A stretch of DNA of 64,000 nucleotides from Planctomycetota bacterium (GCA_021851715.1 JAJZCR010000002.1:529-64528), one strand, 5' to 3'; shown: positions 1 through 15,805, counted from the first letter of the stretch. Numbers and translations are program-made. The notes: generated by a model from the sequence alone, not told the origin.

Positions 1-126
1 ATTCGTGCCGAGAAGCAGTTAGACGGTTGGCAGTACATTCTTCACGAGTCGGCGGATCGGGGGGCGATGGATAAACGCCGCACCAGGGGCGCAGCCAAGG
101 AATCACCGAGGGCCGACCACCGATGA
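1..126 (+). CDS. 3' end (41 codons) of an upstream ORF that runs off the window; function unknown
   Basis: Frame 1 is open from nt 1 to the TGA at 124-126 (...HESADRGAMDKRRTRGAAKESPRADHR*). Its stop overlaps the helicase ATG (ATGA at 123-126), the same coupling seen at later junctions of this operon. It is absent from the ORF track because it has no start in the window. Confidence 0.35.
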   Translation: MRAEKQLDGWQYILHESADRGAMDKRRTRGAAKESPRADHR

Positions 127-2999
127 CCAATTACCATGCGAAGTATTTGGCCCATGAAATCACGCGCCGGTGCGCGTCGGATAGCGTTGAAAAGCTGACG
201 GCGGTCTTGTCGGATGCCCAGGTTGACCTGAATCCCCATCAAATCGACGCCGCCCTGTTCGCGTTCCGCAACCCGCTCTCGCGTGGTGCGATCCTCGCCG
301 ACGAAGTGGGCCTAGGTAAGACCATTGAGGCCGGTTTGCTCATCGCCCAAATGTGGGCGGAGCGCAAACGCCGAATCCTCGTCATCACGCCAGCCAATCT
401 ACGCAAGCAATGGGGGCAGGAGCTTGCCGACAAATTTTTCCTGCCTTCCGCTATTCTTGAGAACCGGACGTTCAACGAGGCGGTCAAGGCCGGGAATCTC
501 AATCCATTTCAGCGGGATACCGTCGTTATCTGCTCATACCAGTTCGCCAAGAAATCCGAACCGTACATCCGACAGACACCTTGGGATTTGGTCGTCATCG
601 ACGAAGCCCACCGTCTCCGCAACGTCTACAAGCCGACCAACAAGATCGCCAACGCCATCAAGCAGGCGGTATCGCCATTTCGTAAGGTGCTTTTGACCGC
701 GACGCCACTCCAGAATTCGCTACTGGAATTGTACGGCCTGGTCAGCATCATCGACGATTTTGCTTTCGGCGACCTCAAGGCGTTCCGCGCTCGTTTCACC
801 CGGCTCGGCGACAACGAAGATTTTCACGAACTGAAGGAACGCCTCGCGCCGCTCTGCAAACGCACTCTTCGCAAACAGGTTCTTGAATACGTCCCCTACA
901 CGGACCGGCACGCGCTTGTGCAGGAATTCCTGCCGAGCGAAGAGGAGCAACGCCTTTACGATCTTGTCTCCGATTACCTGCAACAGCCCACCCTTTATGC
1001 ATTGCCCGCTAGTCAGCGTTCCCTCATAACGCTGATTCTGCGCAAGCTGCTGGCATCATCGACCTACGCCATTTCCAATACGCTTCAAGGGTTGGCGACC
1101 AAGCTGGAGACCGCCGCCGCCGCGTCTGCAAAGGTCGAATCCCCCCTAGACAATCTGCCGGAAGACGTTGAGGAATTCGACGAACTGGCCGACGAGTGGG
1201 ACGAAGACGGAGAGGACCCGGGGCCGTCGCAGCCGGGATACACGCCGGAGCAACTCGCCGAGTTGAAGACCGAAATGGCCAAACTCCGCGAGTTTCATGC
1301 ACTTGCCAAGTCAATCGTCAGAAATTCCAAAGGCGAAGTGCTGTTGACGGCGCTTCGCAAGGGCTTCGCCGAAGCCGCCAAGGCCCAGGAGCGACAAGGG
1401 AGCGCCGCCCTTCAGCAGAAGGCCATCATCTTCACCGAATCCCGTCGGACGCAGGAATACCTGTACCGGATTCTTGAACAGACCGAATTCGCCGGGAAGG
1501 TAATGTTGTTCAACGGCACAAATACCGATCCCGGCTCGAAAGAAATCCTCCGCCGCTGGCAGGAGAAATACGCTGGGACGGATCGATTATCCGGTTCACC
1601 GGCAGCCGACATGCGGGCGGCGCTGGTTGACAATTTCCGCGACAACGCTTCGATCATGATCGCAACAGAAGCCGCCGCCGAGGGCATCAACCTCCAGTTC
1701 TGCAATCTTGTTGTCAATTACGACCTGCCGTGGAACCCGCAACGCATCGAACAGCGGATTGGACGCTGCCACCGCTATGGGCAGAAATGCGACGTGGTTG
1801 TCGTGAACTTCCTGAATAAGGCCAACGCTGCCGATCAACGAGTATACGAGTTGCTCGCCGAAAAGTTCCGACTCTTCAATGGCGTATTCGGCTCGAGCGA
1901 CGAGGTGCTTGGCGCTGTCGAATCCGGGGTGGATTTTGAAAAACGTATTGCTGCCATCTACCAGCAGTGCCGCACACCCGAGCAGATTCAATTCGAGTTC
2001 GACCAGCTTCAGAAGGAATTGGACGCCGAGATCGCCGCCGGGCACCGGGATGCCCGGGAAAAATTACTCGACAACTTCGATCAGGAGGTCGTTGAGAAGG
2101 TTCGCGTCGAAAGCGAAGGTTTGCTCAACACGTTCAACGAGCGTCTCTGGCGTCTGACTCGCCATGTGCTTGACGGGCACGCACAATTTGACGAGGCCAA
2201 CTATAGCTTCTTCCTCACCCGCAATCCGTTCCCAGCCGAGACGATCAATCACGGCCCGTACCGTCTCGGCAAGAACGTGGAGGATGCCAACACCTATCGC
2301 GTCGGCCATCCGCTGGCCCAGCGCGTGCTCGACTTGGCTAAGAGCTTGTCGGCCCCTTCAGCCGAAGTGACGTTCAATTACACGAATACCCGCAAGAATA
2401 TCGCGGTGCTGACGTCTTTTGTCGGGCGTAGCGGCTGGCTCACCTGCGCACGCCTAACCGTACAGTCGTTTGATACAGAGGAAATCCTCATACTTTCCGC
2501 CGTCGCCGATGACAATACCGTGCTCGATGACTCACAATGCCGCAGGCTCTTTGACCTTCCAGGCGCCGCCGGTAAGGAACTTGGCGTCCCCCCGACGACC
2601 CAGGCCCAACTGTCTGAAGCGGTTGCCAGACAACAGGCCCGGCGATTGGAGATCATTGCAGCCAAGAACGGTAGCTGGTTCGATTCGGAAATGGAGAAAC
2701 TCGACCATTGGGCTGACGACCGGAGAACAACCCTGAAGGCCGAACTGGACGAACTCGACCAGGCGATCAAAGAAGCCAAGAAGGCCGCTCGTCTCGCCCC
2801 GAATCTCCCGGAGAAACTGGAGCTTCAGCGCAAGCTTCGCACGCTGGAAGGCAAACGTGACGAGGCATGGCGGGCATACGATGCCGCCAGTCGGGACATC
2901 GACCGGCAGAAGGACGGCTTGCTCGACGAAATCATCCGGCGGCTGAATCAGAACACAACTTGCGAAACGCTGTTTACCCTGCGATGGAGACTGACATGA
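123..2999 (+). CDS. SNF2/SWI2-family SF2 helicase-translocase with an acidic insert and an unassigned ~350-aa C-terminal region ending in a coiled coil
   Basis: Motif I is ADEVGLGKTIEAG, motif II is VVIDEAHRLRN, and the motif VI region is NPQRIEQRIGRCHRYGQ. There is an acidic run EDVEEFDELADEWDEDGEDPG. The tail is heptad-rich (KAELDELDQAIKEAKKAARL...RKLRTLEGKRDEAWRAY). Confidence 0.9.
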   Translation: MTNYHAKYLAHEITRRCASDSVEKLTAVLSDAQVDLNPHQIDAALFAFRNPLSRGAILADEVGLGKTIEAGLLIAQMWAERKRRILVITPANLRKQWGQELADKFFLPSAILENRTFNEAVKAGNLNPFQRDTVVICSYQFAKKSEPYIRQTPWDLVVIDEAHRLRNVYKPTNKIANAIKQAVSPFRKVLLTATPLQNSLLELYGLVSIIDDFAFGDLKAFRARFTRLGDNEDFHELKERLAPLCKRTLRKQVLEYVPYTDRHALVQEFLPSEEEQRLYDLVSDYLQQPTLYALPASQRSLITLILRKLLASSTYAISNTLQGLATKLETAAAASAKVESPLDNLPEDVEEFDELADEWDEDGEDPGPSQPGYTPEQLAELKTEMAKLREFHALAKSIVRNSKGEVLLTALRKGFAEAAKAQERQGSAALQQKAIIFTESRRTQEYLYRILEQTEFAGKVMLFNGTNTDPGSKEILRRWQEKYAGTDRLSGSPAADMRAALVDNFRDNASIMIATEAAAEGINLQFCNLVVNYDLPWNPQRIEQRIGRCHRYGQKCDVVVVNFLNKANAADQRVYELLAEKFRLFNGVFGSSDEVLGAVESGVDFEKRIAAIYQQCRTPEQIQFEFDQLQKELDAEIAAGHRDAREKLLDNFDQEVVEKVRVESEGLLNTFNERLWRLTRHVLDGHAQFDEANYSFFLTRNPFPAETINHGPYRLGKNVEDANTYRVGHPLAQRVLDLAKSLSAPSAEVTFNYTNTRKNIAVLTSFVGRSGWLTCARLTVQSFDTEEILILSAVADDNTVLDDSQCRRLFDLPGAAGKELGVPPTTQAQLSEAVARQQARRLEIIAAKNGSWFDSEMEKLDHWADDRRTTLKAELDELDQAIKEAKKAARLAPNLPEKLELQRKLRTLEGKRDEAWRAYDAASRDIDRQKDGLLDEIIRRLNQNTTCETLFTLRWRLT

Positions 3000-4015
3000 G
3001 CAAGAATTCCAAGATGGATCGAGATGTCGAAGAGGAATATATGAGCGCGCTAGTCCTGTGGAAACGGTTAACGGAAAATGACTTCAACGCGATGCACGGT
3101 ACGGCCTCGCCTCGCGGCCTAGGTGGTGGTGCGCGGCACATTGCACTGGGTGTTAATAATACAGCGTTCCCGATCGCTGACTTCCTGGGACGCAACGCCA
3201 CACTTACTACCGTCGCCCAGCAAGGAAATCATGATGTTGGCGAACTGGTGTTTAACAGTAATCCGAGCCGAAGACGCGGAGAATGGCTAATCTGTGACCA
3301 ATTCAAGCACCGCCATCCAGCATGGCGAAAATCAGCTGGTTTTCCGGCACACTACGACTCGAATAACCCCCCATACATCCTGATTGTCAGAATTGGAAAC
3401 ACAACGCACGTCCGCTTCATTCTTGCTCGCGCCCTTTCCCAACTTCCAGAAACTGCTTTGCCAGCGGGCATAATTGATCGATCCAAGGGCATTCAGGAAG
3501 CTTCAAAAGCATTTCTGATAGAGCTGCATATCCCATTCGATACTCTGCTAGACACATATAATGTCGAGCTTGCTGACTACCACCCGGATGCATTCGATCC
3601 GGATAGCTTAGAAGACGGTCGCAGTCGCATTGTCGCTTCCATTATACGCCGCCAAGGCCAGCAAGACTTCCGACGAAAGTTGCTGGATGCCTACAACAAG
3701 CAGTGCGCAATTACGCGTTGTCCCACATTGTGGGTTTTAGAGGCAGCGCACATTACACCATATCGGGGTGCCCGCACAAATGTCGTGTCGAATGGCCTGC
3801 TCCTACGTGCGGATGTCCACACCCTGTTCGACCTTGCTCTAATTTCGATTGCGCCAGATTCCATGACTATTCGTGTTTCTCAACGATTGGTCGATGACTC
3901 ATATCTAGCATTAGAAGGACGATCTATCGTTATCCCACGCCATAGCATTTCTAGACCAAACAGAGATGCCATTGCGCGGCACTTTAAGCAATTTGAGCGA
4001 CAGCTAGGTGCTTAG
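2996..4015 (+). CDS. HNH endonuclease (COG3440/HNH_2-like C-terminus) with an unassigned ~230-aa N-terminal domain
   Basis: The C-terminal module reads QCAITRC...LEAAHITPYRGARTNVVSNGLLLRADVHTLFD. I chose the start at ATG 2996, which forms an ATGA overlap with the helicase stop, rather than the track start at 2867. ATG 2984 is an alternative. Confidence 0.8.
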   Translation: MSKNSKMDRDVEEEYMSALVLWKRLTENDFNAMHGTASPRGLGGGARHIALGVNNTAFPIADFLGRNATLTTVAQQGNHDVGELVFNSNPSRRRGEWLICDQFKHRHPAWRKSAGFPAHYDSNNPPYILIVRIGNTTHVRFILARALSQLPETALPAGIIDRSKGIQEASKAFLIELHIPFDTLLDTYNVELADYHPDAFDPDSLEDGRSRIVASIIRRQGQQDFRRKLLDAYNKQCAITRCPTLWVLEAAHITPYRGARTNVVSNGLLLRADVHTLFDLALISIAPDSMTIRVSQRLVDDSYLALEGRSIVIPRHSISRPNRDAIARHFKQFERQLGA

Positions 4016-4042
4016 TTGTTACTCGAGCCGTAGGAATCCAGG

Positions 4043-5929
4043 ATGAACTCAAGAGAATCGTTAAGGATGCTTTCCATGACCCCGCCTGATAAATTTGATT
4101 TGCGCTCCCATGACCCAATAGACGAAAAGCTCGAATGCCTCTTCCGTCTCTTTCCCGAAGCCCGATCCGAAGGCGGTAAACTCGACTTCGCCCGGCTCAA
4201 GCTGGCACTCGGCGAGTCGGTGGACGTAGGCAAGGAGCGCTACGGCATGAACTGGCCCGGCAAGGTCGATTGTTTCAAGACCATTCAGACTCCGAGCGTC
4301 GCTACCCTTCGCCCGTGCTCGGAAGAAAGCTTTAACTTTGAAACCACCGAGAACCTCATTATCGAAGGCGACAATCTTGAGGTGCTCAAACTCTTGCAGA
4401 AGTCATATCTTGGCAAGGTCAAGATGATCTACATCGATCCGCCATACAATACTGGTAACGATTTCATTTATCCTGATAATTACAACGAGTCGTTGCAGAC
4501 CTACCTGGAGTATACAGGGCAAGTTGATGACGATGGCAAAAAGTTCGGCACGAATACGGATGCCGACGGGCGATTTCACTCTAAGTGGCTCTGTATGATG
4601 TGGCCTCGGCTTTATCTCGCCCGAAACCTCCTTTCTGAAGATGGCGTTATCTTCGTCAGCATAAGCGACCATGAGGTCGCTGCTCTTCGGATGTTGATGA
4701 ACGAAATCTTTGGTGAAGAGAATTTTAGTGCCCAGTTCGTTTGGAAGAGCCGTAAGTACCCGGACTCGCGTGCCAAAACAGGGGTGTCAACCGACCATGA
4801 GTACATTGTCCTTTACACTCGTTCCGACAGGGGAATTCTGCGTGGTGTTGAGCGTGACGAAACAAAGTTCGGAAATCCTGACAACGATCCCTGCGGCGTT
4901 TGGATGAGTAGGAGCTTGTTAGGGCTTGCGACGAAGGCACAGCGTCCAAACCTGCATTACACAATCACTGACCCGGCAACAGGGCGTAAGTACGACCCGC
5001 CGGAAGACACTGGGTGGCGCTACTCCGAGGATCGGATGAAGTCGTTGATTGCAGAGGGCTGCATCCTGTTTCCTTCAAAGGCTGAGGGCCGACCACGTGA
5101 AAAGAAGTTCCGTTCCGATCTCCAAAGTGAGTTTGTCGCGTTTCCGAGCATCATCGACGACTTATTTACCTCTGACGGCACGGCAGAAATCCGCGAACTT
5201 TTTGGCGAAGAAGTATTCGATTTTTCTAAACCCTCGGCTCTGATACAGCGTTTGGTCAAGCAGGGCACTAATGGAGACGGCATCGTCCTCGATTTCTTCG
5301 CAGGAAGTGGTACCACGGCTCAGGCCGTTCTTCAGGCCAACGATGAAGACGGGGGAGATCGCAAGTACGTTCTCATTCAACTACCTGAACCTACTGAGCG
5401 AAAGGACTTCCCAACAATCGCCGAAATTACCAAGGAGCGCGTCCGACGAGCAGTGGCCAACCTTTTGAAGGCTCTCGAAGGGTCGCTCTCATTTGAAGAG
5501 AGAGATTTGAAAGACCGTGGCTTTCGAGTGTACAAGCTCGCCGAATCTAACTTCACCGAGTGGGATGCTAATGTTCAGCACGAGGATAATGCGTTGGAGA
5601 GACAACTTCAGCTTCATGTAGATCACATCCGTCATGAGCGGAACTCCGACGACATTCTTTACGAACTGCTTCTCAAAAGTGGCTTTCCGTTAACAACGAA
5701 GGTGGAGAAGGTCACGCTCGCTGGCAAGACGGTGAATTCCGTCGCCGGGGGGGCGCTGATAATTTGCCTTGAGAAGCATCTCACCCTTGAAGTGATCCGC
5801 GCCATCGCCGACCGCAAGCCTGAGCGCGTTGTCTTGCTGGACGAGGGCTTTGCCGGGAACGACCAGTTGAAGGCCAACGCCGTGCAAACGTTCAAGACCA
5901 AGGGCGTCACCAGCTTCAAAACCGTTTAG
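4043..5929 (+). CDS. mod: Type III restriction-modification methyltransferase (Mod), N6-adenine, beta-class
   Basis: Motif IV is IYIDPPYNTGNDFIYPDNY, and motif I follows about 290 aa later as LDFFAGSGTTAQAV. Its size (628 aa) and position upstream of a Res gene fit a Mod subunit. Confidence 0.9.
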   Translation: MNSRESLRMLSMTPPDKFDLRSHDPIDEKLECLFRLFPEARSEGGKLDFARLKLALGESVDVGKERYGMNWPGKVDCFKTIQTPSVATLRPCSEESFNFETTENLIIEGDNLEVLKLLQKSYLGKVKMIYIDPPYNTGNDFIYPDNYNESLQTYLEYTGQVDDDGKKFGTNTDADGRFHSKWLCMMWPRLYLARNLLSEDGVIFVSISDHEVAALRMLMNEIFGEENFSAQFVWKSRKYPDSRAKTGVSTDHEYIVLYTRSDRGILRGVERDETKFGNPDNDPCGVWMSRSLLGLATKAQRPNLHYTITDPATGRKYDPPEDTGWRYSEDRMKSLIAEGCILFPSKAEGRPREKKFRSDLQSEFVAFPSIIDDLFTSDGTAEIRELFGEEVFDFSKPSALIQRLVKQGTNGDGIVLDFFAGSGTTAQAVLQANDEDGGDRKYVLIQLPEPTERKDFPTIAEITKERVRRAVANLLKALEGSLSFEERDLKDRGFRVYKLAESNFTEWDANVQHEDNALERQLQLHVDHIRHERNSDDILYELLLKSGFPLTTKVEKVTLAGKTVNSVAGGALIICLEKHLTLEVIRAIADRKPERVVLLDEGFAGNDQLKANAVQTFKTKGVTSFKTV

Positions 5930-5935
5930 GGGTGC

Positions 5936-6982
5936 ATGATGAGCGAACCCGATAAACCCAACGAAGGCGAACTGATCCTGTACCAGACCCCCGAGGGCAC
6001 AGTGCGCATCGAGGTGCTGTACGAGTCCGAGACATTCTGGCTTAACCAGAAGAAGATTGCCGAGCTTTTCGGGGTGGATTTACGGACGATAAGTTACCAC
6101 CTGAGCGAGATTTACGCATCCGGCGAATTGCAGCAGGATCGAACTCTCCGAAAAGTTTGGAGAGTTCAAAGCGAGGGCAGCCGCGAGGTTCGACGGGAAA
6201 TCGAATTTTACAACCTCGACGCGATAATTTCCGTCGGCTACCGCGTCAACAGCGCCCAGGCCACGCAATTCCGCATTTGGGCCACGCAGACGTTGCGGGA
6301 ATTCGTCATCAAGGGGTTCGTCCTGGACGACGAGCGCCTGAAGTTCAACAAGCGATTCGGCAAGGATTATTTCGACGAGTTGCTGGAGCGCATCCGCGAG
6401 ATACGGGCCAGCGAACGCCGCTTCTACCTCAAAATTACCGACATATACGAGCAGTGCAGCATCGACTACGACAAGGACGCCGAGATCACCAAGACGTTCT
6501 TCAAGACCGTCCAGAACAAGCTGCATTGGGCCGTGACCGGGCAGACTGCTGCCGAAATCATCGCCGAACGTGCCGACGCCAAGAAGCCGTCCATGGGGCT
6601 GACGACGTGGAAGAACGCTCCGAAGGGGAAGATTCTCAAGTCGGACGTGTCTGTGGCAAAAAACTACCTGATTGAGCAGGAAATCAAGGAACTGGAGCGC
6701 ATCGTCGGCATGTACCTGGACTATGCCGAGAATCAGGCCGCACGGCAGATTCCGATGAAGATGACCCATTGGGTTGCACGGCTTGATGCGTTCCTGAAAT
6801 TTAACGAGTACGAGGTACTTACCAACGCCGGTTCCGTGTCGGCGGAGGTCGCAAAGCGGCTGGCTGAAGAACAATACGAGACGTTCCGCGTCGCTCAGGA
6901 TCGTGCTTTTGAGAGCGATTTCGACAAGGAGATCAAGCGGATCGAGAAGAAAACCAAGCGGTCCAAGGGAGATGGCGAGTGA
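5936..6982 (+). CDS. RhuM-family (virulence protein RhuM-like) protein embedded between mod and res
   Basis: The N-terminus ELILYQTPEGTVRIEVLYESETFWLNQKKIAELFGVDLRTISYHLSEIYASGEL matches my memory of the RhuM family signature. It sits 6 nt after the mod stop, and its stop overlaps the res start. Confidence 0.8.
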   Translation: MMSEPDKPNEGELILYQTPEGTVRIEVLYESETFWLNQKKIAELFGVDLRTISYHLSEIYASGELQQDRTLRKVWRVQSEGSREVRREIEFYNLDAIISVGYRVNSAQATQFRIWATQTLREFVIKGFVLDDERLKFNKRFGKDYFDELLERIREIRASERRFYLKITDIYEQCSIDYDKDAEITKTFFKTVQNKLHWAVTGQTAAEIIAERADAKKPSMGLTTWKNAPKGKILKSDVSVAKNYLIEQEIKELERIVGMYLDYAENQAARQIPMKMTHWVARLDAFLKFNEYEVLTNAGSVSAEVAKRLAEEQYETFRVAQDRAFESDFDKEIKRIEKKTKRSKGDGE

Positions 6983-9957
6983 AACTGCAATTTGACGCAA
7001 ATCAGCCTTATCAGCTTGCCGCCATCAGCGCCGTCACCGACCTGTTCGAGGGCCAGCCGCAGGGCGCGCCAGAGTTTTCGGTGATCCAGATGGGCGATTG
7101 GGGCGGTATGTTTGCCGGGCAGGATCGCACGGAACTTGGCGTCGGCAACCAGATATTGCTTTCTTCCGACAAACTCCTGGGCAACGTCCGCATCGTTCAG
7201 ACCCGCAATGACATCGACGTATCCGACCCCAAGACGCCGCTGGAGCAGTGGGAACTGTTTGACACCGCCGCGAATGCTGCCCGGACATGTCCGCATTTCT
7301 CCGTCGAAATGGAGACGGGAACGGGGAAGACCTATGTGTACCTTCGCACCGTGTTCGAGCTATCGCGGCGCTTTGGTTTTCAGAAATTCATCATCGTCGT
7401 GCCAAGTGTGGCCATCCGCGAAGGGGTACTTAAAAACATCGAGATTACCGCCGAGCACTTCCGGGCGATCTACAACAACCTGCCGTTTGAGCACTTCGTT
7501 TACGACGCCAAGAAGGTAAATCGGCTCCGCCAGTTCGCCATCAGCAACACCCTCCAGATTCTCATCATCAACATCGACGCCTTCCGCAAAAACTTCACCG
7601 GCACGGAGGCCGAGCAGAAAAGCAACGTCATTTATAAGGAGAGCGACAAACTTTCGGGCCGTCAGCCCATCGAGTTTGTCCAGGCAGCGCGGCCCATCGT
7701 CATCATCGACGAGCCGCAGAGCGTCGATTCGACCGACAAGGCCCAGGAGGCCATCCGGGCGCTGAATCCGCTTTGCACCCTGCGCTATTCGGCAACGCAC
7801 CGGAACCCGTACAACCTTGTTTACCGCCTTGATCCGGTGAAGGCATTTGAGCTTCGGCTGGTCAAGCAAATCGTCGTCGCCAGCGCCGCTGCCGATGGTG
7901 GGGCAAATGACGCCTTCGTACGCATCGAGAAGATCGACTACAAGCCGACGATCAAAGCCAAGGTGCGAATTCACACGCAGACGCCAGACGGCCCGAAGGA
8001 AAAATCGTTCACCGTCAAGAATAGCGCCGACCTGTACCAGCTATCCGGCGAACGCGCCGCGTACGAGAACGGTTACGTCATCGCCGAAATCAACGCCGAA
8101 CCCAGCAATGAATACGTCCGCTTCAACAACGGCAAGGTTCTTCGTTTGGGCGAGGAAAGCGGCGGGATGCGTGACGATGTGTGGCGGGCGCAGATCAAGC
8201 ACACCGTCAAGAAGCACCTGGAGAAGGAACTTCAGCTTCGCGGGCGCGGAGTGAAGGTGTTGAGCCTGTTTTTCATCGACCGCGTGGCGAACTACCGCGA
8301 CTACGATAACGCCGGGCAACCGGTGAAGGGGAAATTCGCCGAGGCGTTTGAAGCGGCACTGGCCGAGTTCGCGAAGGATGCACGCTACGGGCAACTGGAA
8401 TGGCTCAAGGTGCCGTTTGACCGTCTTCACAACGGCTATTTTGCATCCGACAAGAAAGGCGTGCTCAGGAATACACGCGGCGACACCCAGGCCGATGACG
8501 AGGTCTACAACCTTATCATGAGGGAAAAAGAGCGGCTGCTGTCCGAGGACGAGCCGCTGCGCTTCATTTTCAGCCACTCTGCGCTCCGCGAGGGGTGGGA
8601 TAATCCGAACGTGTTCCAGATTTGCACGCTCAACGAAACCCGCAGTGCCATGAAGAAGCGGCAGGAAATCGGGCGCGGGCTGCGCCTGCCCGTGGATCAG
8701 AATGGCAAGCGGGTGTTCGACGAATCCGTGAACAAACTGTTCGTCATGGCCAACGAGAGTTACGAGGACTTCGCCAAGGCGCTCCAGAGCGAATATGAGG
8801 AAGATTGCGGCGTGACCTTTGGCAAGGTGCCGCTTACGGCCATTGCTCGCATTTCGTGCGTCGTGGACGGCGTGGAGCAACCCATTGGCCGGGAAGCCGC
8901 CGAAGTTATCCGCACGGCACTGGTTCAACAGAAGATGCTGGATACGGAAGGCCGCATTCAACCCGTTTTCGATCCGAAGAAACCCGGATTCAAGATAGAC
9001 CTTCCCGAAGGGCAAAAAGAAGCGGCTCCGGCGGTGATCGACTTGCTGGCATCGTACCAGATTGAACGCCACATACGGAAGGACAAGGATGAAGGCGTAA
9101 ACCGGCTGAAAAAGGAAGTCCAACTCAGCCCTGAATTCATAGCCCTGTGGGAACGGGTCAAACCGAAGACGACCTATCGCGTGGAATTCGAGACGGACAC
9201 GCTGGTCCGGCGTGCCGTTGATGCGATCAAGCGGATGGAGAAAATCGAGAGGCCCAAGATTCGCGTCAGTGCCGGACAAATCGACGTAAAGCGCGGCGGC
9301 ATTGCCACGGCGGCGATCAGCGTGGCCGAAGAGCGTGTTTCTGTGGATTCCTACCCGGTGCCCGATGTATTGGCCTACTTGCAGAACGAAACGGAATTAA
9401 CCCGTTCAACTCTTGTCCGAATCCTGAAGGAGTCGGGCAGACTGGCTGAGTTCTTCACCGATCCACAGCGTTTCATGGACGCCGTTGCCAATATCCTGAA
9501 GCACGAGCTACACCGTCTGCTGGTAGACGGCATCAAATACGAGAAGATCGGCGGTGCCGGCCCAGGTTCCGAATGGGAAATGATGCTGTTCAAGAACGAG
9601 GAACTAATCAATTACCTCAATGCTTTGCAGGTAAACAACTCTGTTTATGAATATGTCGTTTATGATTCGGAGGTCGAGCGAGAATTTGCTAGGAAGTTGG
9701 ACACCCGTACCGACATAAAGCTCTTTGTAAAACTACCGGGTTGGTTTGAGATCGACACCCCGGTCGGCAAGTACAACCCGGATTGGGCCATCCTGAAATA
9801 CGACGGCCAGGCGATGTACTTGGTTCGGGAAACCAAGGGAACGAAAGATTTCCTCAAACTTCGCACGAGCGAAGCGGACAAGGTTCGTTGCGGCCAGAAG
9901 CATTTCGAGACACTTGGTGTGCCGTTCTCTGTTGTGGTCACTGCCGACGAGGTTTAG
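6979..9957 (+). CDS. res: Type III restriction enzyme, Res subunit (SF2 helicase plus C-terminal PD-(D/E)xK nuclease)
   Basis: Helicase motifs are METGTGKTYVY (motif I), VIIDEPQSVD (motif II) and SALREGWDNPNVFQI. The C-terminal nuclease-like region reads YNPDWAILKYDGQAMYLVRETKG. The GTG start at 6979 overlaps the RhuM stop (GTGA). Confidence 0.9.
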   Translation: MKLQFDANQPYQLAAISAVTDLFEGQPQGAPEFSVIQMGDWGGMFAGQDRTELGVGNQILLSSDKLLGNVRIVQTRNDIDVSDPKTPLEQWELFDTAANAARTCPHFSVEMETGTGKTYVYLRTVFELSRRFGFQKFIIVVPSVAIREGVLKNIEITAEHFRAIYNNLPFEHFVYDAKKVNRLRQFAISNTLQILIINIDAFRKNFTGTEAEQKSNVIYKESDKLSGRQPIEFVQAARPIVIIDEPQSVDSTDKAQEAIRALNPLCTLRYSATHRNPYNLVYRLDPVKAFELRLVKQIVVASAAADGGANDAFVRIEKIDYKPTIKAKVRIHTQTPDGPKEKSFTVKNSADLYQLSGERAAYENGYVIAEINAEPSNEYVRFNNGKVLRLGEESGGMRDDVWRAQIKHTVKKHLEKELQLRGRGVKVLSLFFIDRVANYRDYDNAGQPVKGKFAEAFEAALAEFAKDARYGQLEWLKVPFDRLHNGYFASDKKGVLRNTRGDTQADDEVYNLIMREKERLLSEDEPLRFIFSHSALREGWDNPNVFQICTLNETRSAMKKRQEIGRGLRLPVDQNGKRVFDESVNKLFVMANESYEDFAKALQSEYEEDCGVTFGKVPLTAIARISCVVDGVEQPIGREAAEVIRTALVQQKMLDTEGRIQPVFDPKKPGFKIDLPEGQKEAAPAVIDLLASYQIERHIRKDKDEGVNRLKKEVQLSPEFIALWERVKPKTTYRVEFETDTLVRRAVDAIKRMEKIERPKIRVSAGQIDVKRGGIATAAISVAEERVSVDSYPVPDVLAYLQNETELTRSTLVRILKESGRLAEFFTDPQRFMDAVANILKHELHRLLVDGIKYEKIGGAGPGSEWEMMLFKNEELINYLNALQVNNSVYEYVVYDSEVEREFARKLDTRTDIKLFVKLPGWFEIDTPVGKYNPDWAILKYDGQAMYLVRETKGTKDFLKLRTSEADKVRCGQKHFETLGVPFSVVVTADEV

Positions 9958-10421
9958 GGTCTATGACCGTCGGTGCGAAGCGGCATGGGATCTGTCCGGG
10001 ATGCCGCCGCAGGTCAGCCGCGTTTTAGCAGACTCATCAGTTCCAAGCTGAAGCCCTTGATTCCATCGCAAAAACGCCGAAAAAGTTCAATAGCCGTCTT
10101 GTTGTCCCGATTTTGGCTGCAGGCCAAAATAGAGCAGGAGAAGTTGGAGCAGGAGATCAGGAGAGCACATAAGGATGAGACGAAAGAACGGCTGTCGCCG
10201 GAGTGGTGGGGAAGCCCAATCATTCCCCGCTCCGCCTATTCCCACTTCCCACGTGAGCAGGCCGGGGCGGGTCGTGAATTGATTTTCTTGGACTTTAACC
10301 GTAATCTATGGATGGAATCGTACCAGCCAACCGATGGATGTGATGGAATCACTCCACGGCGTGATGATCCCTGCCGGGGAACGTCAATGGATTCCGAATT
10401 CGCATGGATGGCGGATGGCGC

Positions 10422-10715
10422 ATGTTAAAACTTCTCGTGAGTCTGGTAAGCCTTTTCCTGGTCGCGGCCCTGGTTTTAGCCCTGCGACAGCAGCGCATGG
10501 ATTTGACCAGTCAAAGCGCCAAACTGTTTATCAGGATCAATCAGCGGCGACATCTGTTGTGGGGTCAGCAGATAAAAATTTCGACCGCGACCAATCCCAT
10601 CGCCATCTCCCGGACATTAAAAGCCCGCGCCGCAGCGGAAGCGGCCCAGCGGGCCGCTGCGACCATGCCCGCGCTGATTGCGGTTCCGGTCCAAGGGACT
10701 GCCGGTGGCAACTAG
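10422..10715 (+). CDS. Small bitopic membrane protein, FtsL-like by position
   Basis: It has an N-terminal TM helix (MLKLLVSLVSLFLVAALVLAL) followed by a polar or coiled segment. It lies directly upstream of ftsI in a dcw context. The start was moved to ATG 10422 within track ORF 10404-10715. No sequence motif supports the call. Confidence 0.4.
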   Translation: MLKLLVSLVSLFLVAALVLALRQQRMDLTSQSAKLFIRINQRRHLLWGQQIKISTATNPIAISRTLKARAAAEAAQRAAATMPALIAVPVQGTAGGN

Positions 10716-10831
10716 CAGTGGTCGCAAATGTTGCCGGCAAGCTAAGCCGGCAGCGAGCGGGGGCAATGATGGTTGGGAGCGGTTGGCCAAAATCGCCCGC
10801 AGGCATGGAAGCCGGAGGTTAGTGGACTACA

Positions 10832-12748
10832 ATGCATAGATTCCGCAAAACGGAATGGCTGTCGAGCTTGGTGCTGCTGGGCAGCATGCTGGTCTTTTCG
10901 GCGCTTTTGGTGCGGGTGGGTTGGCTGCAGACGCATTCCACCCGGGGCACCATGCGCGAGCTGCGCAGTGAGCACACCATCGTCACGCATCTGATGGCTC
11001 GCCGGGCATCCATTTATACCAGCGATTCCACCCTGATTGCCGGCAGCGTGCGGGTTTACAGTTTTTATGCGGATCCGGGTTATATTTTTGATCCCAAAGG
11101 AACGCTCAATGCCTTGCCGCCAAACGAAGCACCAAAGGCGGAAAAAGTGATGGCCCGGGCCATTGCTCCGCTGCTGGGGCAGAGTGCATCGCAACTTACG
11201 GCCATGCTGCGGGCGCATCTTTATTATCCCAACGGGCAGTTGCGGCGGTTTTTGTGGCTGAAACGCGGTGTAAAACAGGATTTTTACCGGCGGATTGAGG
11301 CGGTGCATCATCAGATGGAGCGTCGCGCAGCAAAAGCACTGCGGCACCACCATCCGAACCTGGCGGATATTGACTATCATGCCTTGGATGGGATTGGTTT
11401 TAAGCGCTCCACGCGGCGGATTTATCCGCTGGGTTCATTTGCCGGCCAGGTGATTGGCTTTGCCAATTCCAATCGTGGATTGCAGGGATTGGAAGGCCAG
11501 TTGAATTCCCTGCTGGTCGGGCGCAACGGCCGGGTGGTGTATGCCAAAGCGGCCACGGAACGGGCCTTGTGGATTGAAAAACGCGGCTACAAACCGCCCA
11601 GCGACGGCATGAAGGTTTGGCTGACACTCAACACCACCATGCAAGGCGTTGCCGAGAGGGCGTTGGATAAAGCCTGCAAATTCTTCAAAGCCCACAGCGG
11701 TGTGGCGGTGCTGATGAATCCGTTCAATGGCGACATTTTGGCCATGGCCAATTATCCGCCGCTGAATCCAAATCAATATCAGGCCACCCCGGAAAAATTC
11801 TGGCGGAATCGGGCGGTAACCGATCCGTATGAACCGGGATCCTGCTTTAAGCCGTTTAACGTGGGTTGGGCTTTGCAACATCACATTATTACGTTGCAAA
11901 CGGTGTTCAATTGCCATTACGGCCGCTGGCGTGATCCGACTGGCCGGTTGATTAAAGATGTGGATGGCCATGGCTTTTTAACGGTGGAAAATATTCTGGT
12001 ATATTCCAGCAATATCGGCATGACGCACGTAGGGTGGAAAATGGGCATTCCGCGCCTGTATGCCGGGGTGCATGCCTTTGGCTTCGGGCAGATGACCGGC
12101 AGTATTTTGCCCGGCGAGTCTCCGGGCATGGTTCGGCCGGAAGACCGGTGGACCAAGGGCACCGAAACCTCCGCCAGCTTCGGCTACGGGGTGGGTGTAA
12201 CCACCTTGCAATTAGCCCGGGCGTTTTGCGTGTTTGCCAACGGGGGCTATTTGCCCACCCCGCAGATTATCAAGGCGGTGGAAGTGAAGTCCGGGGACAT
12301 CCAGTCCTGGACACAGATTGCCGGCCCGCAGCCGATGAAAAAAGTACTTTCCCGCCATGTTTGCCGGGAGATGATTGGGGCGATGGAACAGGTGATGGAG
12401 CGCGGCACCGGCCAATATAGCCTCTCGAATGTTTATCAACTGTACGGAAAAACCGGTACGGCCAATCTGGCCATCGCCGGCCAGGATGGCTACCACAAGC
12501 ATGCCTACAATGCCACGTTTGTGGAAGGCGGACCGGCACCCAGGCCCCGGCTGATTTGCGTGGTCAGTGTGAATCAGCCGGACCCCAAGCTCGGGCATTA
12601 CGGCGGCACGGTGGCGGGACCGGAATGTACCAAGATCATGGTCAAAGCGCTGCAATATCTGCAGGTGCCTCCGGATCAGAGTCCGGCGACGGATCCCTGG
12701 TGGGGCAAGGAAAAACAGTTGTGGACCCAAAGCGGCTTGAGCCATTGA
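10832..12748 (+). CDS. ftsI: Peptidoglycan D,D-transpeptidase (class B penicillin-binding protein, FtsI/PBP3-type)
   Basis: It carries SxxK (SCFK), SxN (YSSNIG) and KTG (GKTGTA) motifs and an N-terminal membrane anchor. It sits before murE. Confidence 0.85.
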   Translation: MHRFRKTEWLSSLVLLGSMLVFSALLVRVGWLQTHSTRGTMRELRSEHTIVTHLMARRASIYTSDSTLIAGSVRVYSFYADPGYIFDPKGTLNALPPNEAPKAEKVMARAIAPLLGQSASQLTAMLRAHLYYPNGQLRRFLWLKRGVKQDFYRRIEAVHHQMERRAAKALRHHHPNLADIDYHALDGIGFKRSTRRIYPLGSFAGQVIGFANSNRGLQGLEGQLNSLLVGRNGRVVYAKAATERALWIEKRGYKPPSDGMKVWLTLNTTMQGVAERALDKACKFFKAHSGVAVLMNPFNGDILAMANYPPLNPNQYQATPEKFWRNRAVTDPYEPGSCFKPFNVGWALQHHIITLQTVFNCHYGRWRDPTGRLIKDVDGHGFLTVENILVYSSNIGMTHVGWKMGIPRLYAGVHAFGFGQMTGSILPGESPGMVRPEDRWTKGTETSASFGYGVGVTTLQLARAFCVFANGGYLPTPQIIKAVEVKSGDIQSWTQIAGPQPMKKVLSRHVCREMIGAMEQVMERGTGQYSLSNVYQLYGKTGTANLAIAGQDGYHKHAYNATFVEGGPAPRPRLICVVSVNQPDPKLGHYGGTVAGPECTKIMVKALQYLQVPPDQSPATDPWWGKEKQLWTQSGLSH

Positions 12749-12809: not shown

Positions 12810-14327
12810 ATGAAACTAAGTGTACTATTGACAGATGTAACGCTGCCGCCGGCGCGGCTGATCAAGTCCGCAGTTGATCCGGAAATCAACCGCGTGGTGG
12901 AAGATTCGCGCCAGGTTCGCCCGGGCGATCTTTTTGTGGCCCGCAGCGGTACGCGGCATCGCGGCGAAAGTTTTATCCAGGAGGCGCTGGACCGGGGTGC
13001 GGCGGCGGTGTTGTTGGCCGACCAGCCAACCTCCAGGGCGCAGCTTGAAGAACGGGATGTGTCGGCGGAAGAATTGCTGGCCCGCCTGGCCCATCGACTG
13101 CGTAGCGAACCGGCGCGTGGGTTGACTATTTTTGCCGTCACTGGAACCAATGGCAAAACCACCATCAGCTACCTGGTGCGGGCGATCTGCAAGGCCGCCG
13201 GCCAGCGCTGCGGGTTAATCAGCACGGTGGAAATTGACGATGGTGCTCAGGTGCGGGAAAGCGTGATGACCACACCTGGACCGGTGGAACTGGCCGATCT
13301 TTTGGCGCAAATGAAAAGCAACGGCGTTCGCTTTGTGTCGATGGAAGCCAGCAGCCATGCCCTTGATCAGGGCCGGATGGCGGGCTTGCCGGTGGCGGCC
13401 GCCATGTTCAGCAATCTCACCGGCGATCATCTGGATTATCACGGAACCATGGAGAATTACGCCGCCGCCAAAGCCCGGCTTTTTGCTTCGTTGTCCGCCG
13501 GGTCATCGGCCATCATCAACGCCGATGATCCATGGTCGGCGCGCATGGTGCAGGGTACCGCAGCCCGGGTGATTCGTTACGGCCTGGAGAATCCCGCCGA
13601 TTTTAAGGCGGATATTTTACGCATGGACGCCCTGGGCATGACTCTGCGTATCACCCATCCCGGTGGCGTGCCATGGACCATCACCACGGAATTGGTGGGA
13701 CGGCATAATGCCCAGAATATCCTGTGTGCCGCAGCGGCATGCGCAAGTCAAGGCATAGCGGCCCCGGCGATTCAGCTTGGCATCGAGCAAATGCGCGCGG
13801 TGCCGGGCCGCCTGGAGGCGGTGCTGGTGGAGGGTAAGCGCCGCAATGAACAGCCCTTTCAAGTGCTGGTGGATTACGCCCATACGCACGACGCGTTGGA
13901 AAATGTACTGCGGGCCGTTCGCCCCTGGACCACGGGGCGTGTCATTTGCGTATTTGGCTGCGGTGGAGACCGTGATGCCACCAAGCGGCCGAAAATGGCG
14001 GCAGTGGCCCAGCGCCTGGCGGATCATGTCATTATCACCAACGATAATCCGCGAACCGAGGATCCCCAGAGCATTATCACCATGATTTTGGCCGGATTTT
14101 CGCCGGAAGCGCGGGCGGCCGTGCACGTCTGCCCGGATCGGCGGGCCGCCATTCAAGCGGCCGTACAGGAAGCCCACCCGGGCGATGTGGTGCTGATTGC
14201 CGGCAAGGGCCATGAACGTTATCAAATTCTTGGCACTATCAAGCACCCGTTTGATGATGTTGCGGTGGCCCGGGCGGCGCTGGCTGATCGCCGGGCGGTG
14301 GTGGCAGGTGGGGGGGAGGCCACATGA
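12810..14327 (+). CDS. murE: UDP-N-acetylmuramoyl-L-alanyl-D-glutamate--2,6-diaminopimelate ligase
   Basis: The P-loop is VTGTNGKTT, and the DAP-specific DNPR motif is present (ITNDNPRTEDP). Gene order fits the dcw cluster. Confidence 0.95.
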   Translation: MKLSVLLTDVTLPPARLIKSAVDPEINRVVEDSRQVRPGDLFVARSGTRHRGESFIQEALDRGAAAVLLADQPTSRAQLEERDVSAEELLARLAHRLRSEPARGLTIFAVTGTNGKTTISYLVRAICKAAGQRCGLISTVEIDDGAQVRESVMTTPGPVELADLLAQMKSNGVRFVSMEASSHALDQGRMAGLPVAAAMFSNLTGDHLDYHGTMENYAAAKARLFASLSAGSSAIINADDPWSARMVQGTAARVIRYGLENPADFKADILRMDALGMTLRITHPGGVPWTITTELVGRHNAQNILCAAAACASQGIAAPAIQLGIEQMRAVPGRLEAVLVEGKRRNEQPFQVLVDYAHTHDALENVLRAVRPWTTGRVICVFGCGGDRDATKRPKMAAVAQRLADHVIITNDNPRTEDPQSIITMILAGFSPEARAAVHVCPDRRAAIQAAVQEAHPGDVVLIAGKGHERYQILGTIKHPFDDVAVARAALADRRAVVAGGGEAT

Positions 14328-15805
14328 AACCATGGGCGTTTGATCAAATACGCCGCGTGACGCTGAGCCGGTGGCTGAATAAATCGCAGCGCAATTTCAG
14401 TGGGCGCGTGGTGCACGACCATCGCAATGTGGCCGAGGGTGATTTGTTTGTGGCCATTCGCGGGGCGCGTTTTGACGGGCACACCTTTATAGCCCGGTCC
14501 GTTGCCGCCGGTGCCGCGGCGGTGCTGGTGGATACTCCGCCTGACAGCGACGCGATGCGTGTGGCCGTGGAAGCGGGTACGGCGGTGTTGCAGTGCGACC
14601 AGACCGTGCGCGGACTCAACCGGCTGGCGGCCGGCTACCGCCAGGAAATCCGGGCCAAGGTTATCGCCGTCGGAGGATCGAACGGCAAGACGACCACCAA
14701 GCGCCTGATCGACACCGTGCTGGCGGCAAAACTTTCCGGCCACGCCAGCCCCAAAAGCTTTAACAACAACATCGGTCTGCCGCTGACGCTTCTGCAGGTG
14801 GAGCCGCAGCACGAATATGTCGTCCTGGAAGTGGGCACCAATGCGCCCGGCGAGGTGGCGGCCCTGGGCCAGGTGGCCGCACCGGATATCGCCGTGATCA
14901 CCAGTGTAGGGTTGGAACACCTGGAACATCTGGGCGATTTAAAATCCATTGCCGCTGAAGAAGCCTCGCTGGTGCGTTTTGTGCGCGATGGCGGCATGCT
15001 GTTTTTCCCCAATGACGCTCCGGAGTTGACCGAGGCGCTTAAGCTTTCCACTTTGGCCCGGGTGACGGTGGGCGTAGCGGGTTCCGGGGCCGACCTGGAG
15101 GCTGTCGATGTGGCAGAATCAATCCATGGCCTGACTTTCAAGCTCAATGGACGGCTGGCCATGCACGTGCCACTGGTTGGCCGGCATAATGTCATGAATA
15201 TATTGCTGGCGATCGGCGTGGCCCGGCGCATGGGCCTGGCGGATGAACAAATTGTGCAGGGTCTAACGCAATGCCGGCCGGCACCCATGCGCATGGAGCC
15301 GCTGCGGATCAACGGGCACTTTGTTCTCAACGATGCGTATAACGCCAATCCGACCAGCATGGCCGGTGCATTGGAAACTTTCGGGCGGATCGACCTGACC
15401 GACACGGTGCATAAGGGTGGCCGTACACCACGGGGGGCATCACGTCGCAGCACAAAACCGGTGCGGCGGGTGGCCATTCTGGCGGACATGCTGGAACTGG
15501 GCCAGGCCGGGCCGGCAATGCATGAATGGATCGGATCGCTGGTGGCGGAGAACCGTATGGACTTGCTGATAGCGGTGGGGCCGCAGATGCAGGCGGCGGC
15601 GGCACGGGCCCGGCAGCACGGCGTGCCGACGGAATATTTTGCCAGCACCGCGGATGCTGTGCGGGGCGTGCCGCCGTTGTTGCACCGGCATGACGCCATA
15701 TTGCTCAAAGGATCGCGTGGAATGCACCTGGAGGAAGTTCTTGAGGCCGTCAAAATTGCGGAGGGGATTGCTTCGGCAGCCACCCCGGCGGGTGGGTTGG
15801 ATTAA
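14324..15805 (+). CDS. murF: UDP-N-acetylmuramoyl-tripeptide--D-alanyl-D-alanine ligase
   Basis: The P-loop is GGSNGKTTTK. There is an ATGA overlap with the murE stop. Gene order fits the dcw cluster. Confidence 0.9.
   Translation: MKPWAFDQIRRVTLSRWLNKSQRNFSGRVVHDHRNVAEGDLFVAIRGARFDGHTFIARSVAAGAAAVLVDTPPDSDAMRVAVEAGTAVLQCDQTVRGLNRLAAGYRQEIRAKVIAVGGSNGKTTTKRLIDTVLAAKLSGHASPKSFNNNIGLPLTLLQVEPQHEYVVLEVGTNAPGEVAALGQVAAPDIAVITSVGLEHLEHLGDLKSIAAEEASLVRFVRDGGMLFFPNDAPELTEALKLSTLARVTVGVAGSGADLEAVDVAESIHGLTFKLNGRLAMHVPLVGRHNVMNILLAIGVARRMGLADEQIVQGLTQCRPAPMRMEPLRINGHFVLNDAYNANPTSMAGALETFGRIDLTDTVHKGGRTPRGASRRSTKPVRRVAILADMLELGQAGPAMHEWIGSLVAENRMDLLIAVGPQMQAAAARARQHGVPTEYFASTADAVRGVPPLLHRHDAILLKGSRGMHLEEVLEAVKIAEGIASAATPAGGLD

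Follow-up and report, generated by a model that had tools for sequence, protein, structure and literature searches.

A planctomycete operon combining a three-component Type III restriction-modification core with a putatively methylase-matched HNH nuclease

A stretch of 64,000 nucleotides (nt) from a Planctomycetota bacterium (GCA_021851715.1, JAJZCR010000002.1:529-64528), hereafter the window, begins with a cluster of genes built around a Type III restriction-modification (R-M) system. Positions 1-9957 hold six genes, all on the plus strand, namely a helix-turn-helix (HTH) regulator, an SNF2 helicase, an HNH nuclease, mod, rhuM and res (Table 1). Neighbouring genes overlap or nearly abut: the TGA of the upstream open reading frame (ORF) overlaps the ATG of the helicase in an ATGA at 123-126, an ATG in frame with the HNH ORF overlaps the helicase TGA in a second ATGA at 2996-2999, gaps of 27 nt and 6 nt separate the HNH stop (4015) from the mod ATG (4043) and the mod stop (5929) from the rhuM ATG (5936), and the GTG of res overlaps the rhuM TGA at 6979-6982 (GTGA). 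An earlier note on this DNA had listed the same five tight junctions, and all are present in the sequence exactly as claimed. The translated ORFs retain intact catalytic motifs in all enzymes of the operon. The note had also counted at least six genes, the first of them incomplete; six were found and the exact number is six, the upstream ORF being the end of a gene of 95 amino acids (aa) that is complete on L001, an 84-kb contig of GCA_027435975.1 with the same helicase (window position 1 corresponds to L001 position 9879; labels of the form L001 denote our contigs and loci). The helicase sequence is on record from L001 and from metagenome contigs. Upstream of the HTH gene, L001 carries a promoter-like TTGACA, then IS3-type transposase remnants on the opposite strand and, beyond them, glycoside hydrolase genes, and on the 3' side of res a cell-division cluster (ftsI, murE) begins. 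As these flanks have been seen, the operon consists of six genes only and a DISARM or Zorya partner upstream is ruled out.

Table 1. Features of the operon and of its mosaic structure (positions in the window)
Feature	Position (nt)	Strand	Basis
Winged-HTH (HTH_11-type) regulator, last 41 codons of a 95-aa gene	1..126	+	Translation; full gene L001:9717-10004
SNF2-family (RapA/DrmD-like) ATPase, 958 aa, without nuclease domain	123..2999	+	Pfam, PADLOC, NCBIfam, structure matches
15 codons in HNH frame from the ATGA overlap, probable relic of an ancestral mod start, not HNH coding	2996..3040	+	Comparison with L107
Nuclease, 324 aa: N-terminal B3-like domain (~aa 1-160), helical linker, C-terminal HNH_2 (~nt 3704-3850)	3041..4015	+	Pfam, AlphaFold2 (AF2), Foldseek
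Type III Mod, beta-class N6A/N4C methyltransferase, 628 aa (617 aa if start at 4076)	4043..5929	+	PADLOC, PDB, motifs
Target recognition domain (TRD, specificity domain) of Mod, aa 261-395	~4823-5227	+	Mod alignment, EcoP15I alignment break
RhuM-family protein, 348 aa, in the mod-res slot	5936..6982	+	Pfam, PADLOC
Type III Res, 992 aa, SF2 ATPase with C-terminal PD-ExK nuclease domain (~nt 9637-9936)	6979..9957	+	PADLOC, Pfam, EcoP15I
Patch 1, foreign relative to L107: HNH gene and first ~40 mod codons	3007..4168	+	blastn
Patch 2, foreign relative to L107: central mod (end of core1, TRD, core2)	4724..5512	+	blastn

By their database matches, mod and res are a Type III R-M pair, in agreement with the earlier note. 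Mod matches the PADLOC model MTase_III (1.7e-194) and, among Type III Mods in the PDB, 6k0w (2.9e-77) and EcoP15I Mod (1e-63), the latter in an alignment that splits at aa 264. Its DPPY motif (~aa 131) lies N-terminal to FAGSGTT (~aa 415) with the TRD in the centre, which is the beta-class order; the DPPY motif is compatible with N6-methyladenine and N4-methylcytosine (m4C) alike. Res matches PADLOC REase_III (4.7e-300), Pfam RE_endonuc (5.2e-36) together with ResIII, and EcoP15I Res (3.6e-62), and contains the motifs GTGKT, DEPQ, QEIGRGLR and PD...ETK; its score against NCBIfam PRK15483 is 346 bits, under the cutoff of 564.

The helicase carries SNF2-rel_dom (1.9e-33) and Helicase_C (4e-20) and no nuclease domain by Pfam, and its motifs read GLGKT, DEAH and QRIGRCHRYGQ. 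RapA is the nearest solved structure (E 3e-36). PADLOC assigns it to DrmD (2e-202; PDLC02621, aa 35-901), and the two NCBIfam models of that protein give 680 bits (DISARM_DrmD_b, cutoff 950) and 272 bits (DISARM_DrmD, cutoff 610; aa 18-912). A fused DUF4391 at the C-terminus is not supported, as Pfam gives no match there and the C-terminus aligns to the DrmD models. The family is large and conserved, with more than 120 clusters at 74-92% identity. Homologues of the helicase alone led to 15 independent loci from metagenomes, metagenome-assembled genomes and plasmids or chromosomes of E. coli, Salmonella, Rhizobium, Cupriavidus, Deinococcus and a planctomycete, so that Planctomycetota, Pseudomonadota and Deinococcota are represented besides the metagenomes. 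A Type III mod lies 3' of the helicase in all 15, and res is intact in 13, the remaining two being a contig that ends before res and one decayed locus. The HNH gene is present in none of them. Eight times the helicase abuts mod directly, and in L107 and L109 the two genes overlap in the same ATGA that the window has at 2996. Across phyla the helicase remains 44-56% identical to that of the window (L117-L124), while at least three lineages, hardly alignable with one another, can be told apart among the Mod and Res partners.

Type III systems with an extra helicase-like ATPase 5' of mod, devoid of a nuclease motif, have been described as the Eco86II/BspHIV type (Murray et al. 2021, PMC8259958). 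These published systems make m4C, the third helicase of Eco86II is not needed for methylation, and its peptides went undetected in a partially purified enzyme fraction with DNA-cutting activity in vitro (PMC8259958). Our literature search found no later work on the Eco86II-linked helicase. The window shares with this type the gene order helicase-mod-res, an SF2/SNF2 helicase without nuclease motif and a small HTH gene or remnant upstream, and its helicase is 44% identical over 975 aligned positions to the Eco86II-linked SNF2 protein of E. coli NCTC86 (WP_000580534, L119). However, Eco86II has a Mod of 1040 aa, to which the window Mod is ~25% identical, and a Res of 1126 aa, to which no BLASTP match of the window Res was recovered; they belong to another lineage, and the published loci were not reported with an embedded HNH or RhuM gene. 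The versions on E. coli/Klebsiella plasmids and in NCTC86 have a Mod of 1040 aa and a Res of 1120 aa, and no BLASTP alignment of this Res with that of the window was recovered. On this comparative evidence, the locus belongs to the three-component Type III group and the helicase is a third subunit of this Type III lineage, the constant partner of Mod and Res, which bears out the view of the earlier note that the helicase belongs with the R-M genes in one operon.

Two further arrangements were observed. In L097 (9578-10137) the helicase is represented by frameshifted C-terminal remnants (LPEKLERQRQ, ASRDIDRQEDALL) directly 5' of an intact HNH-mod-res set whose Res is 78% identical to that of the window; apparently the helicase can be lost while HNH-mod-res persists. 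A second kind of helicase-assisted Type III operon, found in L008 (5618-9738), L009, L013 and L126, has an SNF2 protein of ~1100 aa (PADLOC 'HKD+Snf2', C3a139-like) and a DUF4391 protein 5' of mod-res, followed in L008 and L013 by RmrT/RmrA-like genes; we found almost no literature on DUF4391.

The gene set does not map cleanly onto any defence system named in PADLOC or NCBIfam, and the helicase labels drawn from DISARM, Zorya, Hma, MADS, Dpd and BREX were rejected because core genes of these systems are missing. Class 1 DISARM (DrmD-DrmMI-DrmA-DrmB-DrmC) resembles the window in having a helicase that is DrmD-like over nearly its full length and is followed by an amino-methyltransferase, but here the partners are canonical Type III Mod and Res, the scores lie under both NCBIfam DrmD cutoffs, and DrmA, DrmB (DUF1998) and DrmC (PLD) are absent from the window and within 10 kb either side on L001. 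Zorya was rejected likewise: the MotAB-like pair ZorA/ZorB is absent from the operon and the L001 flanks, and the match to ZorD is to the generic SNF2 core only (84 bits, cutoff 1500). The earlier note's view that the locus is neither DISARM nor Zorya thus stands, hallmark genes being absent from the window and the L001 flanks; its attribution of ZorD to Zorya type II does not, as the NCBIfam name places ZorD in type I. For systems related to Hma and BREX (definitions in PMC8565338 and PMC12839542), the HmaB 5-methylcytosine (m5C) methyltransferase (MTase) and the DUF499 ATPase HmaC are lacking, as the MTase here is a Type III beta-class amino-MTase and no DUF499 is present; the helicase scores 2e-57 with HmaA, weaker than with DrmD. 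As to MADS (bioRxiv 10.1101/2023.03.30.534895), the mandatory MAD6, MAD7 and MAD8 are lacking apart from a marginal mad8 match on Res (E 0.0015), and the HTH protein of the window does not match the MAD1 model. In E. coli EC2641 a small HTH gene (L120:13808-14008) before an SNF2 helicase does reach this model (NF047737; 82 bits, cutoff 80), but the rest of that locus is SNF2-Abi-AIPR-Mod-Res and not MADS, and therefore the MAD1 model names regulators of unrelated systems.

Homologues of the HTH regulator with 59-82% identity occur 5' of the helicase in L107, L109, L113 and L115, and Pfam assigns HTH_11 to the copies of L109 and L115. About 50 nt 5' of the HTH gene, and thus outside the window, TTGACA and the inverted repeat TCTATC-N7-GATAGA (CTCTATC-N7-GATAGAG on L001) are kept in five loci. 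Because this motif is conserved despite otherwise diverged flanks, we propose one autoregulated promoter, at which the HTH protein would repress its own transcription through the repeat as operator. Consensus scans inside the operon gave 3 promoter-like sites against 4.4 expected, a weak test as the promoter type of the host may differ from the consensus, and 15 terminator-like sites against 12.6 expected, which is no excess in an equally weak test.

The HNH gene is counted as 339 aa if read from 2996 and as 324 aa if read from 3041. It almost certainly starts at the ATG at 3041, with GAAGAGGA upstream, where 25 homologues have their first Met; L003 and L007 lack the ATGA at the position matching 2996. 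The window reads ATGAGCAAGAATTCC in this region, where the mod gene of the HNH-less locus L107 starts with ATGAGCCAGAACGCC, and the ATGA at 2996 is probably a relic of an ancestral helicase/mod overlap, because blastn collinearity with L107 passes through it to 3006 and then breaks. Pfam recognises HNH_2 at the C-terminus (2.6e-12; motif AAH...N...H) and nothing in the N-terminal 200 aa. AF2 models of the protein (mean predicted local distance difference test 86.9 and 84.8) were compared with known structures by Foldseek. As a whole the protein matched VcaM4I (1e-4) and TagI (2.7e-3) via its nuclease half. With the N-domain alone, the top two PDB matches were B3 domains (6c5d_B and 6fas_A), that of LlaJI.R1 with probability 0.99, a target-normalised template-modelling (TM) score of 0.62 and a weak E of 0.017, and that of VAL1 with probability 0.87, TM 0.55 (likewise target-normalised) and a weak E of 0.06. 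No PUA, EVE or SRA fold was among the matches of the N-domain alone, and a reader domain of these types is not supported by the domain-only search. The protein thus has the two-domain layout and the C-terminal HNH_2-type nuclease of the PUA-HNH enzymes (VcaM4I, EVE-HNH; TagI, SRA-HNH), which are the best PDB matches to its HNH part, but its N-domain is B3-like rather than PUA-like and its gene is always MTase-linked. The matches would point, at weak Foldseek E-values, to the B3-domain restriction endonucleases (EcoRII-N, BfiI-C, NgoAVII, CglI, LlaJI.R1), whose recognition sites are protected by a cognate MTase; the MTase next to HNH may correspond to that enzyme.

A search with the HNH protein returned 1595 homologues, from which scans of genomes and metagenomes yielded 36 distinct loci with full-length or N-domain relatives, the rest being related in the HNH domain only. 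In each of the 35 assessable loci a DNA MTase gene accompanies HNH in the same cluster; three MTase families are represented, and their orientation varies. The partner in the majority is a Type III Mod, which as a rule lies 40-100 nt 3' of HNH. In seven loci it is a beta-class MTase with a fused Mrr-like domain, and in five a D12 MTase together with an Eco57I-like MTase in tandem, convergent or divergent arrangement; in four, HNH stands behind a different SNF2 protein and DUF4391. Since L006 holds a bare HNH + MTase pair between dnaG and an oxidase gene, the family needs no helicase. The co-occurrence with mod and res proposed as a check in the earlier note is therefore divided: among the loci looked up, the helicase was never without mod/res, and the HNH family also occurs without Type III genes. 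Two phage or viral sequence collections contained no N-domain relatives, and on plasmids no full-length HNH protein was found, only HNH-domain relatives. HNH evolves fastest within shared loci, where its identity is 50-63%; the helicase has 59-75%, Mod 58-77% and Res 67-89%.

The evidence that links HNH to Mod comes from the central region of the methylase. We aligned 26 Mods, split them into regions and typed the TRDs by the central region; the sample is small and partly non-independent, with L098 duplicating L008 and several short metagenome contigs. In HNH-less loci this region, at which the EcoP15I alignment breaks, varies from 138 to 197 aa with 15-38% identity, and each of eight such loci has a different TRD. 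Among the HNH-bearing Type III loci, by contrast, 15 of 16 have one TRD type (TRD-A), always of 135 aa and 55-100% identical (Fisher's exact p = 7e-5 for HNH against TRD type, computed without correction for phylogeny). The TRD of the window is 60-83% identical to those of HNH-bearing and 22-37% to those of HNH-less loci. TRD-A recurs in L008, L009 and L013 despite a different helicase family and a Res only ~40% identical, in L011 and L103, where HNH sits after res, and in loci whose helicases are farther from that of the window (59-75%) than those of the HNH-less set (75-92%). The stand-alone MTase-Mrr partners have 23-25% identity with TRD-A, compared with 17% for other TRDs. A search by the TRD sequence alone returned 15 short fragments only; the four loci looked up all have a broken mod (frameshifted or interrupted by an insertion sequence) and none has HNH. 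TRD-A can therefore occur where HNH is absent, and the broken genes fit an HNH protein that needs a working Mod, in a sample biased to short fragments.

The same two elements distinguish the window from its nearest HNH-less backbone, L107, whose helicase is 92% identical at the protein level. By blastn the two are collinear at 82-85% except for the two patches of Table 1, and therefore the window differs from an HNH-less operon by a nuclease and a specificity domain. Patch 2 has no blastn alignment to L107, L113 or L109. The GC content at third codon positions (GC3) is 48.6 in HNH, about 20 points lower than the 70-75 of its neighbouring genes, and 53-60 in the central mod of patch 2 against 66-67 at the mod termini; elsewhere it is 66-75.

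HNH and RhuM are each absent from most relatives with 75-92% identical helicases, and by this comparison they are insertions into two variable slots of the operon. Nine of the helicase-found loci have nothing in the helicase-mod slot, which holds elsewhere GmrSD (L112), Peptidase_M78 + DUF4411, Abi + AIPR, AIPR + an HTH protein + VapC, IS256 + Abi, or a hypothetical + an AAA-like protein; the mod-res slot of relatives is empty or holds RhuM, Fic, SLFN_AlbA_2/Fic-like_C, DUF262 or a GmrSD-like gene. RhuM of the window covers 249 of 252 positions of Pfam Virulence_RhuM (PF13310, 1.5e-114) and matches the PADLOC candidate PDC-S05 (3e-157). It was found with different TRD types (window, L003, L107, L113), and since its presence is not tied to TRD type we regard it as independent cargo, a candidate defence effector that would act autonomously. 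Embedding of defence genes has been surveyed for Hma, BREX, DISARM and Type I R-M operons under the term "guilt by embedding" (Payne et al., bioRxiv 10.1101/2024.01.29.577857). As in that survey, variable genes stand here between core genes and the cargo includes GmrSD-like, Abi and Fic-type genes; in contrast to it, the host operon is Type III + SNF2, which was not covered there, and the HNH cargo seems tied to the specificity of the host methylase rather than autonomous.

Taken together, these data suggest one autoregulated operon made of a three-component Type III core (HTH, SNF2 ATPase, Mod, Res), a second nuclease matched to Mod, and RhuM as cargo, a reading to which we give a probability of roughly 0.6. 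In the classical Type III system EcoP15I, Mod methylates one strand of an asymmetric site and Mod2-Res restricts unmethylated DNA; Type III cleavage depends on ATP and on a pair of unmethylated sites in inverse orientation. By homology, Mod and Res of the window would act in the same way. The SNF2 protein would be an ATP-driven translocase on double-stranded DNA that aids restriction in vivo, e.g. by clearing foreign DNA that is transcribed or covered with protein, or by remodelling such DNA; if RapA and DrmD are a guide, it may strip proteins from incoming DNA or rearrange them. HNH would be a second, sequence-specific restriction nuclease whose target is protected by the same Mod, which in our proposal is why it occurs almost only with one TRD type and always by an MTase. 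The fuller form of this idea we hold more tentatively, at somewhat below even odds: a single Type III Mod would guard the chromosome against two unrelated nucleases, Res and the B3-like/HNH protein, reading the same site; HNH would freeze the otherwise fast-shuffling TRD; and a Type II-like enzyme would have co-opted a Type III methylase, possibly using the SNF2 motor as CglI and NgoAVII use theirs. The latter systems (PMC4267653, PMC4267654, PMC5861437) likewise group the genes of a B3-like-domain nuclease, an SF2 helicase-like motor and a methyltransferase, but their nuclease is PLD-type with a C-terminal B3 domain, their motor is DEAD-Z1 and their methylase m5C, and helicase and nuclease here do not co-vary across genomes.

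Several points weigh against this interpretation. One locus (L007) has HNH with another TRD, another (L122) has TRD-A without HNH, and TRD-A-like mods without HNH occur in L125-L129. The HNH-bearing loci were ascertained through HNH and may share descent, and the association with TRD type is not corrected for phylogeny. The B3 assignment of the N-domain leans on Foldseek E-values of 0.017 and 0.06, and the nearest relatives of the HNH domain are the modification-dependent VcaM4I (PDB sequence E 7e-7) and TagI. In relatives, the slot that HNH occupies holds unrelated, presumably autonomous cargo. A single transcript is deduced from gene overlaps and one conserved promoter, and the roles given to helicase and HNH are deduced from sequence and comparison. 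Moreover, a Type III Mod marks one strand, and therefore a single-site nuclease would endanger freshly replicated DNA. As half of the sites are unmethylated after replication, HNH may require a pair of sites, nick rather than cut both strands, or rely on a partner; EcoRII, BfiI, CglI and NgoAVII are B3-domain enzymes of such a conditional kind (PMC4267653, PMC5737866).

Alternatively, HNH could be an autonomous modification-dependent (Type IV-like) nuclease, a backup cargo like GmrSD or BrxU with no functional tie to Mod. We consider this unlikely, but it is the most serious competitor. Apart from the affinity of the HNH domain to VcaM4I and TagI and the precedent of embedded defence genes, it would agree with GmrSD occupying the same slot in L112 and adjoining HNH in L009 and L098, and with the many invariant polar and aromatic residues of the N-domain, which recall a ligand pocket. 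Yet the N-domain alone matches B3 domains and not PUA, EVE or SRA folds, an enzyme of this type needs no methylase although every assessable locus has one adjacent, the two-gene HNH + MTase loci included, and compatibility alone would hardly account for a single TRD type.

A clearly less probable explanation regards HNH as selfish DNA, a homing-type endonuclease cassette targeting the 5' end of MTase genes, so that the linkage would reflect target-site preference. The position of HNH just after the relic of a mod start and its deviant GC3 are what such a cassette would leave, and so is the arrangement of the HNH + MTase-Mrr loci L099 (147-3005), L100 (2024-4525), L102 (9706-12571) and L101 (3-1159), in which a diverged, truncated copy of the first ~95 MTase codons, DPPF included, lies directly 5' of HNH and the full-length MTase comes after it. 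These four loci look as if an HNH + MTase cassette had recombined into a resident MTase gene. Position and orientation relative to the MTase vary, however: HNH is convergent in L095 and L104 and divergent in L005, and it follows res in L011 and L103. Nor do the three MTase families have a DNA target in common, and the single TRD type is left unexplained.

About as improbable, or slightly more so, is that all six proteins form one obligate multi-subunit machine, DISARM-like or another new large system, with HNH and RhuM as indispensable parts. One promoter, overlapping or near-abutting genes, the DrmD-like scores of the helicase and the same gene order in L003 (the first gene excepted) can be cited for it, but most relatives with 75-92% identical helicases lack HNH and likewise RhuM, RhuM occurs independently of TRD type, and no DrmA, DrmB or DrmC is found within 10 kb either side. 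Finally, the pairing offered in the earlier note as one possibility, with SNF2 helicase and HNH as a defence module of their own added to an otherwise ordinary Type III R-M system, has very little left to recommend it: the two are adjacent and tightly spaced in the window and 11 other loci, and CglI/NgoAVII offer a precedent for a helicase-like motor with a B3-domain nuclease (PMC4267653, PMC5861437), but HNH is missing from all 15 helicase-found loci, eight of which have the helicase abutting mod directly (with the same ATGA in L107 and L109), and occurs without the helicase in at least 12 loci (with MTase-Mrr, with D12 + Eco57I-like MTases, in L006), after res in L011 and L103, and behind the unrelated SNF2 + DUF4391 pair.

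Returning to the operon with a Mod-matched second nuclease, its Type III + SNF2 core is known (PMC8259958), and the slot architecture is a modest extension of the embedding idea. New would be the specificity-locked second nuclease, for which the support is comparative evidence from a few dozen loci. The SNF2 protein as third subunit of Type III systems is an observation that has stood unexplained since 2021. To it can be added that this subunit appears far more conserved than its Mod and Res partners, that it is spread over several phyla and enterobacterial conjugative plasmids, that its operon usually includes a small regulator gene with a conserved operator, and that two insertion hot spots collect defence cargo, by which guilt by embedding reaches Type III systems and yields candidate defence genes. 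If the link between HNH and TRD is true, two different restriction nucleases share a single methylase, and an otherwise hypervariable TRD can be locked in its evolution by a nuclease gene, which bears on how R-M specificities diversify; it would also point to a new family of B3-HNH restriction enzymes with a defined partner methylase.

Concerning the surroundings, the region between res and ftsI (window 9958-10831) contains only two overlapping ORFs, 9973-10428 and 10334-10822, neither with a family match. In the cell-division cluster that follows, ftsI occupies 10832-12748, murE 12810-14327 and the next ORF 14324-15805, and no recognisable mraZ or rsmH is present there; the defence operon, whose upstream border is the IS3 remnant, may have displaced these two genes from the cluster. 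Elsewhere the operon usually lies in mobile-element or defence-island surroundings, as seen in the flanks of L107, L109, L112, L113, L115 and L116, where its neighbours include ParA, DUF2130, ArdC-N antirestriction, TrwC relaxase, an OLD-family ATPase + UvrD (Gabija-like), SIR2 + DUF87, KAP NTPase and QatB/QueC-like genes. On enterobacterial IncF plasmids (L117) it adjoins psiB/psiA and ParB in the leading region.

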